Assembly: GCA_964426735.1 (NCBI GenBank)
Contig: CAYRRP010000003.1
Location: 77,378 to 141,377 of the forward strand
Direction: 5' to 3'
DNA: 64,000 bases
Source: an uncultured Candidatus Saccharibacteria bacterium
GTDB taxonomy: Bacteria > Patescibacteriota > Minisyncoccia > Phycocordibacterales > DATDWN01
A program made the position numbers and the translations under genes. The notes under the pieces were generated by a model that was given only the letters and a program-made list of their open reading frames with translations, ran no database searches and was not told where the DNA came from. Each line of letters begins with the position of its first letter. The first letter of the stretch is position 1. Positions 6,215 through 39,018 of this stretch are shown piece after piece.

Positions 6215-6520
6215 GCAGGATTTTCATTTTTACAACATCTTGCTCGAGTTTATGTTGAGAGGACCGGTAAATGTCGCAGCACCTTGTACACCTGTGGTCG
6301 ACCCTTTCTCGACTATCCTCGAGGATGCAGTCTCCGCAGTAAATACGTGCATCCAAAAAACCCCTCTTAACAAACAAGAAAAACAACATAACACATCCCG
6401 TCGACGAGCATTACGCGAAAGTCGAGGGAGGGTTTACAGAAAACTCTGACACATGATGTGTTGGAGTTTTTTCTTGCATATAGAAAATATTTTGATAGTG
6501 TGTAACAAGGAGTCACTACG

Positions 6521-6754
6521 ATGAAAGATAACGGTACTGAAGACTTAGAGATGTTCCCTGAAGATCTCGAGTCAGATATTTTCTCAATTATGGGCTACTT
6601 AGCTCAGGAGCTATCGCCACACACCACGCCTGAAGGATTGGTTGAGAATTGTGCACGCGCAACAGGTGTCAGCCCACACTTTGTTCGCGAACTTCTTGTG
6701 GATTGCAGACGTGAATTTTTTAGCAAACTGGTTGTAAAAACACAAGCACCTTAA
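6521..6754 (+). CDS. small acidic hypothetical protein (77 aa)
   Basis: A good RBS AAGGAG lies 7 nt upstream of the ATG. No recognised domain. Confidence 0.5.
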   Translation: MKDNGTEDLEMFPEDLESDIFSIMGYLAQELSPHTTPEGLVENCARATGVSPHFVRELLVDCRREFFSKLVVKTQAP

Positions 6755-32545: not shown

Positions 32546-33094
32546 CTAATCAATAGAACTATTCAATATTTTCAAAAATAACTCATCCCCCTCAGATTCC
32601 TCAACAAAATTCTCCGGATGAAATTGAAAACCATATAGAGGTAAATTTTTATGTTTAATAATTTCAGGACCATCATTTGATATACCCAATACATCAAAAG
32701 TCTCTGGCAACATATCTACTACCCATCGATGACTCTCAAATACCCGTACTATCCCCTCTCCCAAACTTTTATCTAAAAGTCGAACTTCATACATTCCCTT
32801 TTTGTCCTGTGATAGTTCCTTTAGAGTACCTCCAAACGCAGTAACGATAAGTTCATACCCAAAACAAATCCCAATGACCGGAATTTTTGCATTTTTAATA
32901 AAATCTATTTCTTTTTTAAATATGTCCTCATTACCCACCAATTGATATTTACTTCCTCCCGACAAAATAACCACATCAAAATCTGTCGTATCTGTATCAA
33001 AATCAGCAAAAGAATGCACTATTTCTTTTCCAGGAATAAGTACTTTAAGTTTATTTAAAAGGGTTGTTCCATTGTCGATAAGTAAAATTTTCAT
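32546..33094 (-). CDS. class I glutamine amidotransferase-like protein
   Basis: GICFGYE (nucleophile Cys) and FQFHPE (His/Glu), a GATase1 fold with 182 aa. Confidence 0.75.
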   Translation of the reverse strand: MKILLIDNGTTLLNKLKVLIPGKEIVHSFADFDTDTTDFDVVILSGGSKYQLVGNEDIFKKEIDFIKNAKIPVIGICFGYELIVTAFGGTLKELSQDKKGMYEVRLLDKSLGEGIVRVFESHRWVVDMLPETFDVLGISNDGPEIIKHKNLPLYGFQFHPENFVEESEGDELFLKILNSSID

Positions 33095-33156
33095 GTGGTA
33101 AGTATACCAAATTATTTAGCCAAATTAGTAGGAAGAAAGTTAGAAATTTCCACTGG

Positions 33157-33301
33157 TGCGGGTGGGGAGAATCGGTCACGAGTAATTCTGGTTCCGTCGA
33201 ACCAGAATTCTCTCGACCCCGACTCGCGACCCACTCTGGTGAGCGGGTGCCCCCGCTCCGTCTTTCGATTCCCCATGCAAAGCTCTGCTTTGCTCACCCG
33301 C
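33157..33301 (-). ncRNA. GC-rich tRNA-like structured element (copy 1 of the tRNA-Gly-associated RNA motif)
   Basis: It begins GCGGGTG and ends CGATTCTCCCCACCCGCA, identical to the tRNA-Gly(TCC) acceptor 5' strand and last 18 nt. The core (GGGGAATCGAAAG…CGGAGCG…CGCGAG…GGGTCG…TGACCGATTC) is conserved with 37372..37496, and the stems are compensatory. Confidence 0.55.
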
Positions 33302-33347
33302 ACACATATCAAAAAACCGGCATAAAACCGGTTTTTTGATATGTGTG
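33301..33347. repeat. perfect 20-bp palindrome CACACATATCAAAAAACCGG-cataaaa-CCGGTTTTTTGATATGTGTG (bidirectional terminator-like)
   Basis: Exact inverted repeat between tRNA-Gly(TCC) and the tRNA-like element. Confidence 0.85.
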
Positions 33348-33416
33348 CGGGTGGGGAGAATCGAACTCCCGTATACTGCTTGGAAGGCAGTCATTCTACC
33401 ACTAAATTACACCCGC
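33346..33416 (-). tRNA. tRNA-Gly (anticodon TCC)
   Basis: GCGGGTG acceptor, anticodon arm ACTGC-CTTCCAA-GCAGT, T-arm GGGAG-TTCGATT-CTCCC, 71 nt. Confidence 0.9.
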
Positions 33417-33479
33417 GATTGAAATACTCTAGCAGAAAAACAAGTATTCGGCAATTAAAAATGTTATATACTTATACGT

Positions 33480-34607
33480 ATGCTCAGACATCTTTTTACA
33501 AAAATCATTCTTTTCCTTAGCCTGTCTTTCTTTATACACCCCAACCCGGTAGTTATTTCAAACATGCCCACACTTCCCCATTCCACAACCACATCAGAAG
33601 CGAAAGCAACTTCCACTCAATCTGCGATCACATCAACGCCGTCAACACCAAAAAAAGAAACAACAAAGCCAACTGGTACAAAAAATACCTCAAAAGTCAG
33701 CGAAACACAGTCTGTAGCATCATCCACTACTCCCGTAGTAGTCCCAGAACCAACTATTCCCTTTGAGACAATCAACGAAAATGCTCGTAAAGCAGTGGTA
33801 AATATTTTATGTACTGTACAAAACTCTAGCTCACTTTCGACGATTACTGGAAGCGGTATTGTTTTAAGTAGTGATGGTTTGATTTTGACCAACGCTCATG
33901 TAGCACAATATTTCCTCTTTAAAAACTTTAACAATCAAAAAGATTTTATCTCATGCGTAATCCGTACTGGAAACCCTGCCTACCCTACGTATACCGCAGA
34001 GCTCGCATACATTTCTCCACAATGGATAGCGGAACACAAAGGCGATATTGTCCTTGAGAGTCCAAAAGGTACCGGTGAATATGATTATGCTTTTTTACGT
34101 ATTACCGGAAAAACAGATGGCACTATAGCACCCACAACACTTCCGTTTATTCCCATAAATCTGATTGAATTTACAGAAATAGGTACACCAGCAGTACTCG
34201 TCTCATATCCTGCTGGTTTTCTCGGAGGGCAAAGTATTATTCAAAATCTGTATCAAAGTAGTGCAGTGATCAATGTTACTGATCGATTTACATTTGGTGA
34301 GAATACTGTAGACCGACTGTCTCTCGGAGGAAGTGTGGTGGCACAAAAAGGCTCTTCAGGAGGAGCTGTGGTAGATAGCAGAGGTACCCTCATTGGATTG
34401 ATTTCTATTAGCTCAGACGGAAATACCACGGGAGAACGAGACCTTAGTGCCATTACCCTCTCCTACATCAACCGCGATCTTATTAAAAATGCAAACACTA
34501 CTATTTCCTCTATCGCTTCGAATAGCGCTGTCTTTGCCGCAACATTTAATGAAAAATTAGCTCCTGGACTGACTAAAGCATTGAGTGATGTGATTTTGAA
34601 GAAATAA
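33480..34607 (+). CDS. secreted trypsin-like (S1C/HtrA-type) serine protease without a PDZ domain
   Basis: Signal/TM N-terminus and a Thr/Ser-rich linker. Catalytic motifs are TNAHV (His) and GSSGGAVVD (Ser). Confidence 0.75.
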   Translation: MLRHLFTKIILFLSLSFFIHPNPVVISNMPTLPHSTTTSEAKATSTQSAITSTPSTPKKETTKPTGTKNTSKVSETQSVASSTTPVVVPEPTIPFETINENARKAVVNILCTVQNSSSLSTITGSGIVLSSDGLILTNAHVAQYFLFKNFNNQKDFISCVIRTGNPAYPTYTAELAYISPQWIAEHKGDIVLESPKGTGEYDYAFLRITGKTDGTIAPTTLPFIPINLIEFTEIGTPAVLVSYPAGFLGGQSIIQNLYQSSAVINVTDRFTFGENTVDRLSLGGSVVAQKGSSGGAVVDSRGTLIGLISISSDGNTTGERDLSAITLSYINRDLIKNANTTISSIASNSAVFAATFNEKLAPGLTKALSDVILKK

Positions 34608-36153: not shown

Positions 36154-36226
36154 CGGGGTGTGGTGTAACGGCTAACATGCTTGATTTGGGATCAAGTGAC
36201 TCCGGGTTCGAATCCCGGCACCCCGA
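36154..36226 (+). tRNA. tRNA-Pro (anticodon TGG)
   Basis: CGGGGTG/CACCCCG acceptor, anticodon loop TTTGGGA, T-arm CCGGG-TTCGAAT-CCCGG. Confidence 0.9.
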
Positions 36227-36247
36227 CAATAGATTTTCTAAATACAC

Positions 36248-37027: not shown

Positions 37028-37101
37028 GCACCCGTAGCTCAATTGGATAGAGTATTTGTCTTCGGAACAAAGGGTTGCAGGTTCGAGTCCTGCCGGGTGC
37101 A
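37028..37101 (+). tRNA. tRNA-Arg (anticodon TCG)
   Basis: GCACCCG/CGGGTGC acceptor, anticodon loop CTTCGGA, T-arm GCAGG-TTCGAGT-CCTGC. Confidence 0.9.
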
Positions 37102-37107
37102 CACGAC

Positions 37108-37136
37108 AAAAAATCCCAACTGCTTGGGATTTTTTG
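37108..37136 (+). terminator. intrinsic terminator ATCCCAA-ctgc-TTGGGAT-TTTTT
   Basis: Hairpin plus U-run immediately after tRNA-Arg. Confidence 0.7.
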
Positions 37137-37296
37137 CTACGTGTGCACAACGGAGACATGTTTTTTCAGCAGAAAAAAAGGTCGAGTTGTGGACCGAAGG
37201 AAATTTCAATTCGACGGAATTGAAATTATCCGAAGTGTACAAGACAAAACCCTATGTATTTGAATTTCTCCCCACTTTGTGTAAAATGAAGGGGAA

Positions 37297-37367
37297 GCGG
37301 CTATGGTTTAGTGGTAGAACACGTCCTTGCCAAGGATGAGATTCGGGTTCGATTCCCGGTAGCCGCA
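37297..37367 (+). tRNA. tRNA-Gly (anticodon GCC)
   Basis: GCGGCTA/TAGCCGC acceptor, anticodon loop TTGCCAA, T-arm CGGG-TTCGATT-CCCG. Confidence 0.9.
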
Positions 37368-37371
37368 CAGA

Positions 37372-37496
37372 AAAATCGGAGATTTTTATCCGGGAATCGA
37401 AAGCCGGAGCGAGGGTTCCCGTCAGCAGACGGGACCGCGAGGCCGGGTCGGGAAATTTTACGAGTGGCGACGAGTAAAATATTCCTGACCGATTCC
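37372..37496 (+). ncRNA. GC-rich structured element (copy 2 of the tRNA-Gly-associated RNA motif) in the cca leader
   Basis: Small hairpin AAAATC-gga-GATTTT, then CCGGGAATCGAAAGCCGGAGCG…TCCCGTC-agca-GACGGGA…CGCGAG…GGGTCG…variable hairpin…TGACCGATTCC. It aligns with 33157..33301 (-) and shows compensatory stem changes. Confidence 0.55.
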
Positions 37497-37545
37497 AGTG
37501 CCCATACTCATAAATAAGGCCTCCAAAAGCCTTAAAATCACTCAT

Positions 37546-39018
37546 ATGAATACAAACTTCACTATCCCTGTCGAAGTGTCACGTGTAACACAAACCCTCG
37601 AAAATGCCGGTTTTGAGGCTTTTTTGGTTGGTGGATGTGTACGAGATCTTATCCTCAACAAAAAACCAAAAGATTGGGATGTTACTACCAACGCAACACC
37701 TGAGCAAATCATTGCTTTGTTTCCACATACCTTTTACGAAAACAACTTTGGAACAGTTGGTGTTGTTTCAGATGAAACAGAAGATGACACTCTTAAAACT
37801 ATTGAAGTTACGCCATACCGTCTTGAATCAGAGTATTCTGACAATCGACGCCCAGACGCTGTTACTTTTTCACAAAATCTCACAGATGACTTAAGGCGAC
37901 GCGACTTCACCATTAACGCCCTTGCATACTCAGTATCTAAAGGACAACTCACTGATGTCTTTAATGGACAAGCTGATATTTCTGCTCAAACTATACAAAC
38001 AGTAGGGAATGCGGTCGAAAGACTCACTGAAGATGCCCTTCGTATCATGCGAGCAGTGCGGTTTCATGTGGAACTTGGCTTTATCCTTTCACGTGAAACG
38101 GAAAAAGCGGTACTTGAACACGGTCATTTACTACAAAACATCTCAAAGGAACGCATTCGTGACGAATTTACAAAGATTATTATGTCTCCGCAGCCAATGA
38201 ATGGCTTACTCATGCTGAAAAAGCTGAATTTACTTCAGTATATTGTACCAGAACTGGAAAAAACTATTGGGGTAGAGCAGAACCGGGCACATTCATACGA
38301 TGTATGGGAACATTTACTTCGAAGCCTCCAGACTGCAGCAGATAAGAACTGGCCTCTTGATATTAGACTTACCGCTTTATTTCACGATATTTCAAAACCT
38401 GAGACACGTCGATGGGGAAAAGAGCAGAATACGTGGACATTTTACGGTCATGAAGTAGTTGGTTCACGTGTAACACGGAAAATACTTACTGATTTGCGAT
38501 ATCCGAATAAACTAATTGATAAAGTGGTGACAATGGTGCGATGGCATATGTTTTTTTCTGACACAGAACAGATAAGCCTCTCTGCGGTCCGTAGAATGAT
38601 CGTAAATGTTGGACGAGAGAATATCTGGGATTTGATGAATGTACGCATCTGCGACCGTGTAGGAACTGGTAGACCCAAAGAAGATCCGTACCGCCTCCGC
38701 AAATACCATGCAATGATAGAGGAGGCTCTTCGTGACCCGATTACTGTAGGAATGTTGAAAATAGATGGTAAACGTTTAATCGATGTTACACAGGGAACAC
38801 CTGGTCCTAAAATAGGGTATACACTTCATGCATTACTCGAAGAGGTACTCGAAGATCCAACTAAAAACACTGTGGAATATTTAGAAAAACGCTCTGTTGA
38901 GCTCTATACTATGGATGAGATCGAATTAAAAAAGCTCGGTGAACAAGGTAAACAAACGAAAGAAGAAATAGATCAGCAGGAAATCTCAAAAATTCGTAAA
39001 GGACACAAAGTAAAGTAG
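37546..39018 (+). CDS. cca: CCA-adding tRNA nucleotidyltransferase (Pol-beta head plus HD domain)
   Basis: …GFEAFLVGGCVRDLIL…DWDV… head domain and an HD-domain C-terminus. The start is taken at MNTNFTIP, not the track start 37498. Confidence 0.85.
   Translation: MNTNFTIPVEVSRVTQTLENAGFEAFLVGGCVRDLILNKKPKDWDVTTNATPEQIIALFPHTFYENNFGTVGVVSDETEDDTLKTIEVTPYRLESEYSDNRRPDAVTFSQNLTDDLRRRDFTINALAYSVSKGQLTDVFNGQADISAQTIQTVGNAVERLTEDALRIMRAVRFHVELGFILSRETEKAVLEHGHLLQNISKERIRDEFTKIIMSPQPMNGLLMLKKLNLLQYIVPELEKTIGVEQNRAHSYDVWEHLLRSLQTAADKNWPLDIRLTALFHDISKPETRRWGKEQNTWTFYGHEVVGSRVTRKILTDLRYPNKLIDKVVTMVRWHMFFSDTEQISLSAVRRMIVNVGRENIWDLMNVRICDRVGTGRPKEDPYRLRKYHAMIEEALRDPITVGMLKIDGKRLIDVTQGTPGPKIGYTLHALLEEVLEDPTKNTVEYLEKRSVELYTMDEIELKKLGEQGKQTKEEIDQQEISKIRKGHKVK

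Follow-up and report, generated by a model that had tools for sequence, protein, structure and literature searches.

A tRNA-matched structured RNA element behind an att-like repeat at a Saccharibacteria tRNA-Gly gene

At the attachment (att) sites of P4-type elements and related tyrosine integrases, a repeat of the tRNA 3' end that begins in the T-loop flanks the insert, while the tRNA itself stays intact. In transfer-messenger RNA (tmRNA), YrlA, viral tRNA-like structures and mascRNA, an acceptor-like helix stacked on a T-stem-like helix encloses a domain that is not tRNA, and in plant tRNA-snoRNA dicistrons, the TMERs of MHV68, MALAT1-mascRNA and the 3' external transcribed spacer of E. coli leuZ (3'ETS-leuZ), a non-coding RNA is made via a tRNA promoter or trailer and freed by tRNA-processing nucleases. 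Group I introns, which in Patescibacteria tRNA genes sit in the anticodon loop, resemble the element described here in being structured, probably selfish, linked to tRNA, found in the same phylum and independent of protein (PMC13011429). The locus considered here lies in a 64,000-nucleotide stretch (the window) of contig CAYRRP010000003.1 from an uncultured Candidatus Saccharibacteria bacterium, in which the initial annotation had picked out a 19-nt direct repeat and a palindrome at a tRNA-Gly(UCC) gene, likening them to the signature of an integrase and naming a duplication intrinsic to a tRNA-like RNA element as the competing interpretation. The analysis supports the latter. Specifically, the repeat and the palindrome were not left behind by recombination; they are arms that form an integral part of a non-coding RNA element, and this element almost certainly represents a conserved family of structured RNAs that trail tRNA genes.

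The general unit of the family measures ~110-190 nt and directly follows the 3' end of a tRNA gene, with which it shares the strand. A spacer hairpin comes first, then a 5' arm that complements the final 4-23 nt of the tRNA upstream (the anti arm), a three-way-junction core (helix P2 and helix P3 with its GACG loop) and a 3' tail in which the tRNA 3' end recurs and by which the junction is closed (helix P1). With att sites the locus shares the repeat, at 19 of 19 nt, but there is no integrase, the insert is ~170 nt long, the 5' acceptor strand is copied as well, the interior is structured, tRNAs of 16 identities are involved, the repeats vary and the copies form arrays; unrelated cargo and one integrase lineage per tRNA, as expected of att sites, are not what the element shows. 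Unlike the tRNA-like domains, it lacks, by eye, a T-loop, any analogue of the D-loop and a tag reading frame, it is multi-copy and mimics the tRNA upstream of it, and in half of the copies this mimicry is cut to 3-5 bp. Two candidates of this kind were rejected: ARAGORN calls no tmRNA, and the Rfam tmRNA_permuted match (18.7 bits against a gathering score of 47) was dismissed because it spans just the tRNA end and the hairpin; as for a tRNA gene or pseudogene, 33154-33301 holds no cloverleaf, only acceptor-like and T-stem-like helices. The trailers of tRNA-linked non-coding RNAs differ in lacking arms that copy or complement the tRNA and in not forming a multi-copy, one-core family; to our knowledge, such trailers (snoRNA dicistrons, TMERs and others) have not been reported in Patescibacteria. 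Group I introns, finally, occupy the anticodon loop, are ~200 nt or more in length and match Rfam, whereas the element lies outside the mature tRNA, has a ~100-nt core and has no Rfam model (PMC13011429). As such, the element fails the defining features of each known family that could be tested, and neither a description in the literature searched nor an Rfam 15 match was found for it.

A repeat that belongs to a covarying RNA family

The 19-mer GTGCGGGTGGGGAGAATCG has two exact matches on the forward strand, at 33156-33174 and 33345-33363, where none is expected by chance in the window. Their starts lie 189 nt apart, in line with the spacing of about 190 bp first reported, and the suggested search for further 19-mers, run on the 64-kb window, yielded no third match with up to three mismatches allowed. 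The 19 nt are indeed the reverse complement of a tRNA-Gly 3' end, as ARAGORN and Rfam place a complete, canonical tRNA-Gly(UCC) on the minus strand. The match at 33345-33363 runs from the 3' part of the T-loop of this tRNA through the 3' strands of T-stem and acceptor to the discriminator and one base more; the gene has no encoded CCA, and CAC comes next. The perfect palindrome exists as well, but its size and place had to be corrected: it had been given as 20 bp within 33301-33347, and the inverted-repeat search returns arms at 33295-33320 and 33328-33353 that are 26 nt long and 100% complementary. In the resulting long hairpin H, the outer 9 bp are the tRNA-Gly(UCC) 3' end (CACCCGCAC) paired with GUGCGGGUG, the start of the element copy at this locus (copy A), and the inner part is a spacer hairpin built of an A-tract, a CCGG stem and a U-tract.

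The evidence that copy A belongs to an RNA family comes from two alignments, one of 67 non-redundant cores and a second (A2) of 114 distinct copies fitted to a covariance model, R1. RNAalifold folds the 67 cores into a three-way junction in which 22 of 31 pairs have changed on both sides. With the closing helix P1 included, 94.5% of cells are paired compared with 33-45% when the partners are slid, and the covariation score of 0.579 stands against at most 0.111 for slid partners and is reached by none of 500 shuffles. The 114 copies give a similar picture, with compensatory changes in 33 of 35 pairs, 94.9% of cells paired and a score of 0.624 (at most 0.080 when slid); over both alignments, the slid controls leave 32-45% of cells paired. 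Specifically, the base of P2 covaries from A:U to C:G at GMC/GKC, all NNN/NNN' pairs are compensatory, and a G·U pair at the base of P3 is kept in 106 of the 114 copies. Because this conserved G·U would become a C·A mismatch on the opposite strand, the RNA reads on the tRNA strand. Compensatory changes far above the controls and a strand-specific G·U are the generic marks of a structured RNA, and the family bears both.

A search with nhmmer, using the element as query, returned a diverged copy in the window (copy B) and one in the relative L005 behind tRNA-His, where the interior is conserved and the element ends match tRNA-His instead (GGGUGGCUA ... CAAC-CCCGAUAGCCACCC). A pattern taken from the conserved interior, which fixed the GGGUCG/UGACC base of P3, served for the first collection and matched 104 places in metagenome contigs; about 12 of these were chance matches in high-GC coding DNA and were discarded by eye, unscored by the covariance model. 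The same pattern has 0 matches in viral contigs, and hence there is no sign of a phage origin. Model R1, run on the fetched loci (labelled L001 and so on), added ~130 further copies from relatives and metagenomes, many of them outside the pattern's reach, in hosts that the record titles label as metagenome-assembled genomes of Patescibacteria/Paceibacterota type. The arrangement of copy A is shared by two identical contigs of the same organism and no others. With Rfam 15 at gathering thresholds, the four tRNAs alone reach score in the 64-kb window; with E values up to 10, the interval 33050-33500 adds to the tRNA just hairpin-driven, miRNA-type chance matches. Two variants stand apart within the collection: a sub-group (L091 97-212, L095 5870-5992 and L172 530-643) with a ~15-nt insertion in distal P3 (..GUACUUGGUAAAUAAGGAGC..), and a larger variant behind tRNA-His (L007 1509-1700) that is broken by a run of N.

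Each copy is matched to its own tRNA. Among 129 strong copies, 77 start at most 130 nt from a same-strand tRNA and 16 follow another copy in tandem, while a contig end truncates 4 and no tRNA was called for 32, all these counts being dependent on the ARAGORN calls from which the tRNA neighbours were taken; some of the 32 carry T-arm remnants or tRNAs that ARAGORN missed. Copies in this last group are often preceded by a GGTTCGA-like stretch with ...GCAC ~20 nt later (L156 ~190-232, L107 ~1090-1130, L114 ~1230-1270, L103 ~6510-6560), which looks like a tRNA 3' remnant, and tRNA sequence may therefore accompany more of the copies than the roughly 60% counted.

The 70 non-redundant tRNA-element pairs span 16 amino-acid identities and 29 anticodons, in 34 compact, 28 extended (as copy A) and 8 intermediate layouts. 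The compact layout runs from the tRNA through one hairpin (with a CUGC loop in 23 of the 34), a 5-7-nt complement of the last tRNA bases and the core to a 3-5-nt repeat. The tail repeats its own tRNA end over at least 7 nt, and up to 21 nt, in half of the pairs (35 of 70), where 7 is the 95th percentile for other tRNAs; the complementarity of the 5' flank to the own tRNA end has a median of 9 compared with 5 for other tRNAs. Long repeats always begin at R57 (tRNA ...GGUUC|R57..., element ...GACC|R57...). In arrays, each unit keeps the complement specific to the array's tRNA, for instance GUGCG behind tRNAs ending in ...CGCAC and GUGGA behind tRNA-Ala, and single copies behind tRNA-His carry GGGUG. 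The anti arm is predicted to bind its own tRNA end with -20.8 kcal/mol, other tRNA ends with -15.4 and its own tail with -14.6; the tRNA beats the tail by more than 2 kcal/mol in 53 of 70 pairs, a preference of which a few kcal/mol stem from the slightly longer tRNA window. In a dozen copies, copy B included, the tail is clearly decayed and the tRNA complement intact.

These observations bear directly on the att-like interpretation, according to which the 19-mers would be attL and attR of an element with a tyrosine or serine integrase, later deleted down to ~170 bp. Such an origin would account for an exact direct repeat of the tRNA 3' end that starts in the T-loop, reportedly a classic sublocation for integrase crossover, and for the absence of the element at tRNA-Gly(UCC) in relatives. 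However, integration duplicates the 3' part of a tRNA only, and copy A also holds a 5' acceptor strand and a complement of the T-arm; between the repeats lies a conserved, covarying RNA, the same core stands with matched arms behind tRNAs of 16 identities, the repeats range from 3 to 21 nt, and three copies lie within 4.3 kb. No recombinase was found near copy A, where a Pfam scan of the neighbours identified GATase, a trypsin-like protease, RNase Y, HU, YraN and a CCA-adding enzyme, all of them housekeeping, nor does one recur near the ~130 copies of the family. More broadly, no protein family recurs near copies (the maximum is 7 of 88 sources), the commonest neighbours being housekeeping genes (L19, IF-2, TsaD, SpoU, pseudouridine synthase, PilM, ABC transporter), and the ORF (open reading frame) clusters recurring within 4 kb of 129 copies, of which the ten largest were named, include no recombinase, reverse transcriptase, HUH transposase, TnpA(Y1), TnpB or IscB.

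The comparison with other loci that had been proposed as a refuting test came out against the scar. Conserved structure does occur at other loci, which favours a functional RNA, although strictly orthologous tRNAs are patchily occupied. Gene order around the GATase gene is not conserved. Among tRNA loci, tRNA-Arg(UCG) is always occupied in the related genomes (compact in two, extended in the other two), tRNA-Gly(GCC) in 2 of 4, and tRNA-Gly(UCC) in the window alone. At empty sites the tRNA is followed by unrelated sequence or a plain terminator hairpin, and the closest relatives, L001 and L002, have another tRNA or a terminator hairpin before the GATase gene and no element.

A decaying tandem duplicate of the tRNA, whose structure would be left over from tRNA folding, fares hardly better. 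Copy A does keep 5' and 3' acceptor strands and T-stem-like segments, and a disrupted tRNA-Arg-like paralogue accompanies a copy in L137. Yet the ~95-nt core is not derived from tRNA, it is conserved through compensatory changes in more than 100 copies behind unrelated tRNAs, ARAGORN and Rfam call no tRNA in 33154-33301, and the segment is GC-rich and far stabler than its shuffles. Both explanations are contradicted by several independent tests; the pseudogene is very improbable, and the integrase scar is the most improbable reading of all.

Copies and signals within the window

The features of the window are collected in Table 1. On the minus strand, copy A follows the order tRNA, spacer hairpin, GCGGGUG, 7-bp hairpin, GGGGAAUCG, AAAG, a ~90-nt GC-rich core that ends in GUGACC, and the second 19-mer, followed by CA. 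It contains ~60% GC in a genome of roughly 40% GC, and the element alone (a 145-nt segment) has a minimum free energy (MFE) of -76.9 kcal/mol (z = -6.7 against shuffles), with its tRNA-like ends paired to each other. The initial annotation had remarked on a GC-rich element between the repeats; it now appears that this segment opens with GCGGGUG, a copy of the tRNA-Gly(UCC) 5' acceptor strand. The segment GGGGAAUCG is complementary to CGAUUCUCC(CC), which occurs both in the tail and on the 3' side of the tRNA T-arm (T-loop 3' half and T-stem 3' strand). Since both of its arms are long, copy A resembles a tRNA-Gly in which one hairpin replaces the D and anticodon arms and the core replaces the T-loop. 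The tail reads ...CACCCGC-A-CCA, with a discriminator A and an encoded CCA (33154-33157, minus strand) that its tRNA gene lacks, an ending that recalls the tRNA-like domains; no weight is given to this CCA, which is probably a coincidence, because just 2 of the 10 copies with long tails share it. Across the window, CCA is encoded at none of the four tRNA genes. Instead, the discriminator is followed by CA (ACAC, ACAA, ACAC, ACAG), and A-C-A-A is the commonest context among the metagenomic copies.

Table 1. Features of the element copies and associated tRNA genes in the window
Feature	Position	Strand	Basis
tRNA-Gly(UCC), complete, canonical	33346..33416	-	ARAGORN; Rfam RF00005, 73.7 bits
19-mer copy 1: own 3' end of tRNA-Gly(UCC), C56 to A73 plus C74	33345..33363	-	
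Long hairpin H: 26-nt arms 33353..33328 / 33320..33295, 7-nt loop	33295..33353	-	repeat finding, sequence
Element copy A, whole unit, ~148 nt	33154..33301	-	MFE; covariance model R1, 94.7 bits on 33278..33170
GCGGGUG, identical to tRNA 5' acceptor strand; pairs with CACCCGC of tail or tRNA	33295..33301	-	sequence, fold
Hairpin 2 (GCAAAGC AGA GCUUUGC), in place of D and anticodon arms	33277..33293	-	fold; equivalents in other extended copies
Anti-T segment GGGGAAUCG (P1 5' strand)	33266..33274	-	fold; P1 covaries
Junction AAAG, then P2: GAC/GUC base helix, GGA/GA internal loop, variable hairpin	33221..33265	-	RNAalifold, pair counts
P3: GGUCG/UGACC base with conserved G·U, A/U-rich helix, GACG loop	33174..33218	-	RNAalifold, pair counts
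19-mer copy 2: element 3' tail (P1 3' strand and acceptor-like 3' strand)	33156..33174	-	sequence
Element copy D, compact, degenerate, behind tRNA-Arg(UCG) (37028-37101)	37103..37242	+	R1, 52.2 bits on 37133-37242
Element copy B, directly behind tRNA-Gly(GCC) (37297-37367)	37369..37500	+	nhmmer; R1, 99.5 bits on 37387-37494
CA sites after the discriminator of four tRNAs	33345-33347, 36226-36229, 37101-37104, 37367-37370		

Beyond what had been annotated, copies B and D lie ~4 kb from copy A, and 3 of the 4 tRNA genes of the window carry the element; tRNA-Pro (36154-36227) does not. In copy B, the 10-nt anti segment CCGGGAAUCG is a perfect complement of the 3' side of the tRNA-Gly(GCC) T-arm, the tail has decayed to 7 nt, and the gene of the CCA-adding enzyme (37498-39018) stands directly behind. 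In copy D, the last bases of tRNA-Arg pair with GUGCAC in a hairpin with a CUGC loop; the orthologue of this copy in L180 is intact (99 bits). ORFs of 66-76 codons overlap copy A and its tRNA (33095-33325 on the plus strand, 33112-33312 and 33176-33394 on the minus strand) and are treated as mechanical, the substitutions in the family appearing compensatory in helices rather than codon-like.

A consensus scan found promoter-like sites ahead of tRNA-Arg and tRNA-Gly(GCC), called none near tRNA-Gly(UCC), and found none between tRNA and element. Given the lack of a promoter of its own, the element is most likely made as a tRNA 3' trailer. Just after copy A, TGGTATACT was picked out by eye as a candidate extended -10 of the GATase gene, a call that the consensus scan did not make. 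If this candidate holds, the element does not serve as the leader of that gene. The scan did not call hairpin H a canonical terminator either, because the U-run of this hairpin is itself base-paired, with an A-run of the long stem, although the inner CCGG stem with U6 resembles a bidirectional terminator.

Proposed processing, switching and spread

What does such an element do behind a tRNA gene? The most likely reading, put at slightly better than an even chance, sees in it the RNA of a tRNA trailer, which would pair through its arms with the end of the tRNA, be cut off and released, and spread among tRNA genes. Under this reading, the element would be transcribed by read-through from the tRNA promoter as a 3' trailer, and its anti arm would have two possible partners: the tRNA 3' end, in which case the spacer hairpin would lengthen into one long duplex, and the tail of the element itself. 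Such pairing could position the boundary between tRNA and element for host RNase Z, P or III, or possibly for the core itself, and cleavage would release the tRNA and free the three-way-junction RNA as a stable molecule. Over evolution, the element would have become a dispersed repeat, selfish or domesticated, that multiplies at tRNA 3' ends. The trailer and processing mechanism taken by itself is tentative and falls somewhat short of an even chance.

Several points weigh against the trailer reading. The family was collected via one sequence pattern that fixes part of P3, and alignment A2 was fitted to the model; furthermore, metagenome contigs can be chimeric at repeats, and L179, L160 and L143 share halves. 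A closed, tRNA-like scaffold is not a general requirement, because many tails have decayed while the anti arm still matches, and P1 amounts to just 3-5 bp in compact copies. The spacer hairpin, with its A-tract, GC stem and U-tract, resembles an intrinsic terminator and would then limit read-through into the core. Transcription, cleavage sites and stability of the element are all things we infer, the ViennaRNA energies ignore tertiary contacts of the tRNA, base modifications and the order of folding during transcription, and the model does not explain how new copies gain arms matched to a new tRNA.

The predicted folds of the copy A precursor raise another possibility, namely a switch in cis on tRNA maturation, in which the anti arm would toggle between the 3' quarter of the tRNA, leaving it misfolded or masked, and the element's own tail, leaving the tRNA free, with the three-way junction sensing a protein or ligand that sets the balance. 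The predicted minimum of the full precursor, at -148.9 kcal/mol, is a swapped fold in which the tRNA 3' quarter pairs with the anti segments, the palindrome is thereby lengthened into a single long hairpin and the tRNA 5' acceptor strand pairs with the downstream 19-mer; a cloverleaf next to a closed element is predicted at -119.7 kcal/mol. This calculation shows only that the repeat creates two mutually exclusive architectures, without telling which of them would form. The two exclusive folds, an anti arm that tracks the adjacent tRNA and a core conserved as aptamers are would fit a switch. However, the compact copies, about half of the total, mask merely the last 3-7 nt, half of the tRNAs on the same contigs have no element, close relatives lack the element at the same tRNA, and tandem arrays and degenerate copies would be unexpected for a regulator. 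A switch in cis is accordingly given a slim chance.

The family does show evidence of spread, in its tandem arrays, degenerate copies, patchy occupancy of orthologous tRNAs and near-identical cores at different tRNAs. Nearest-neighbour cores stand behind different tRNAs 23 times and behind the same one 6 times, 95% identity is seen between some cores at tRNA-Ile and tRNA-Leu, and in tandem arrays each unit ends in ...GACC-AC(A). Individual loci add observations of their own. In L137 (850-1107, plus strand), the sequence ahead of a copy resembles the 5' part of tRNA-Arg(UCG), in which D and anticodon arms can be made out but an intact T-arm is missing; it is a disrupted tRNA paralogue, and it lies just upstream of an intact tRNA-Arg with its own copy. 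The upstream half of L179 (123-228) is that of L143 (4354-4459; tRNA-Leu, hairpin, core) and its downstream flank is that of L160 (766-871), which has tRNA-Ile upstream, so that L179 reflects either a recombination event joining copies from separate tRNA loci or an assembly that is chimeric at the repeat. L164 holds two nearly identical extended copies (86-191 and 1194-1299, both on the minus strand), one behind tRNA-His and the other after ...GTCACCC without a tRNA; their similar downstream flanks suggest a segmental duplication or a transposition of the unit without its tRNA.

Spread of this kind could also be the element's own doing. A self-targeting mobile RNA or single-stranded DNA element would use the anti arm as a guide that selects a tRNA 3' end as insertion site, comparable to the internal guide sequence (IGS/P1) of group I introns, the pairing of exon- and intron-binding sequences (EBS-IBS) in group II introns and the guide sequences of IS200/605; the core would be a ribozyme or a handle for an enzyme acting in trans, and the tail a duplicated or regenerated target that permits repeat insertion and arrays. 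Multi-copy tandem arrays with their uniform unit ends, degenerate copies, patchy occupancy of orthologous tRNAs and nearest relatives that usually stand at a different tRNA fit this explanation, as do a guide-like complementarity that outlasts the tail, the constant position of the junction at C56|R57 of the T-loop, invariant junction nucleotides, and the disrupted tRNA-Arg paralogue that carries a copy. On the other side, no reverse transcriptase, HUH transposase, TnpB or integrase appears among the recurring clusters near any copy, there are no terminal inverted repeats, the target duplication is not fixed (3-21 nt), no known ribozyme family matches in Rfam, and viral contigs have 0 matches. 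Spread to 16 identities would, moreover, need repeated retargeting, because a guide homes only to an already matched tRNA. Self-targeting is thus unlikely, though it deserves to be taken seriously. More of a long shot is the specific version in which the core is a new small catalytic or guide RNA, whose tRNA-complementary arm would recognise the 3' end of the tRNA or its gene and which would cut itself free of the tRNA precursor and insert or copy itself behind new tRNAs with no element-encoded protein. Motifs of known ribozymes (hammerhead, HDV-like, twister, pistol, hatchet, ZTP, RNase P) were compared with the junction sequences by eye; none fits, and Rfam agrees.

Described mobile and repetitive elements offer partial parallels. 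The primer-binding sites of retroviruses and long terminal repeat (LTR) retrotransposons complement ~18 nt of the 3' terminus of a specific tRNA, the same segment as in copy A (from the 3' half of the T-loop to the 3' end), but the complement in the element lies in cis just after the tRNA gene, extended copies have it interrupted by a hairpin, and no reverse transcriptase is nearby. REP/BIME repeats with their RAYT, PATEs derived from IS200/605, MITEs and SINEs, the last of which are derived from tRNA, are likewise short, multi-copy, extragenic hairpin units without ORFs that form arrays and undergo birth-and-death dynamics. Unlike these, the element has neither terminal inverted repeats nor a target duplication of fixed length, a RAYT, TnpA or LINE partner was not seen, and it shows an RNA-type G·U conservation, a three-way junction and arms tailored to each tRNA. 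A MITE or other DNA transposon derived from an insertion sequence was also considered and rejected, the locus having no terminal inverted repeats and a flanking repeat of 3-21 nt. With a hairpin close to either end and a core that runs into ~20 nt identical to the tRNA target, the element resembles in layout an IS200/IS605-type element, a PATE or the omega (guide) RNA of TnpB/IscB; TnpA(Y1), TnpB and IscB are absent from the ORF clusters named above.

A second core and the wider meaning

The design of tRNA-matched arms recurs around a second, unrelated core. This core was seen behind tRNA-Pro in L180 (3936-4105, plus strand), with relatives in L134 (4579-4726, minus), L137 (2123-2246, plus), L144 (3293-3423, minus), L123 (2267-2393, minus) and L172/L186. 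It reads ..AAG-CC..GUUG [insert] CAAC..GG-GUACUGA and continues with a hairpin with a CUGUAAG loop; on the 5' side it is flanked by a copy or complement of both acceptor and T-arm of the upstream tRNA, and on the 3' side by a repeat of the tRNA 3' end. The second core often stands in tandem with copies of the first family and is not matched by model R1. Judged from these sequences, it suggests a general, natural 'tRNA scaffold' for the expression of structured RNAs.

The findings have practical consequences for the annotation of such genomes. Specifically, the elements make long exact repeats and palindromes at tRNA genes that can be mistaken for integration scars, they can mislead predictors of genomic islands and prophages that rely on tRNA-fragment repeats, and they can break or chimerise metagenome assemblies; gene callers, in turn, could annotate the overlapping mechanical ORFs as hypothetical proteins. 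They also raise testable questions about tRNA 3' maturation in the hosts, about the core (is it a ribozyme, a protein handle or a sensor?) and about the way in which the arms are retargeted. If the core does prove to be catalytic or a guide, the most reduced of bacterial genomes would harbour in this family a new class of selfish element, guided by RNA through a programmable 5-20-nt arm and independent of any protein of its own. Taken together, if the reading put forward here is true, the ultra-small genomes of the Candidate Phyla Radiation (CPR)/Patescibacteria would hold many copies of an RNA that is coupled both physically and informationally to tRNA genes, and this would present a new relationship between non-coding RNA and tRNA, distinct from tmRNA, T-box, intron and att site, in which the arms are rewritten for each upstream tRNA.

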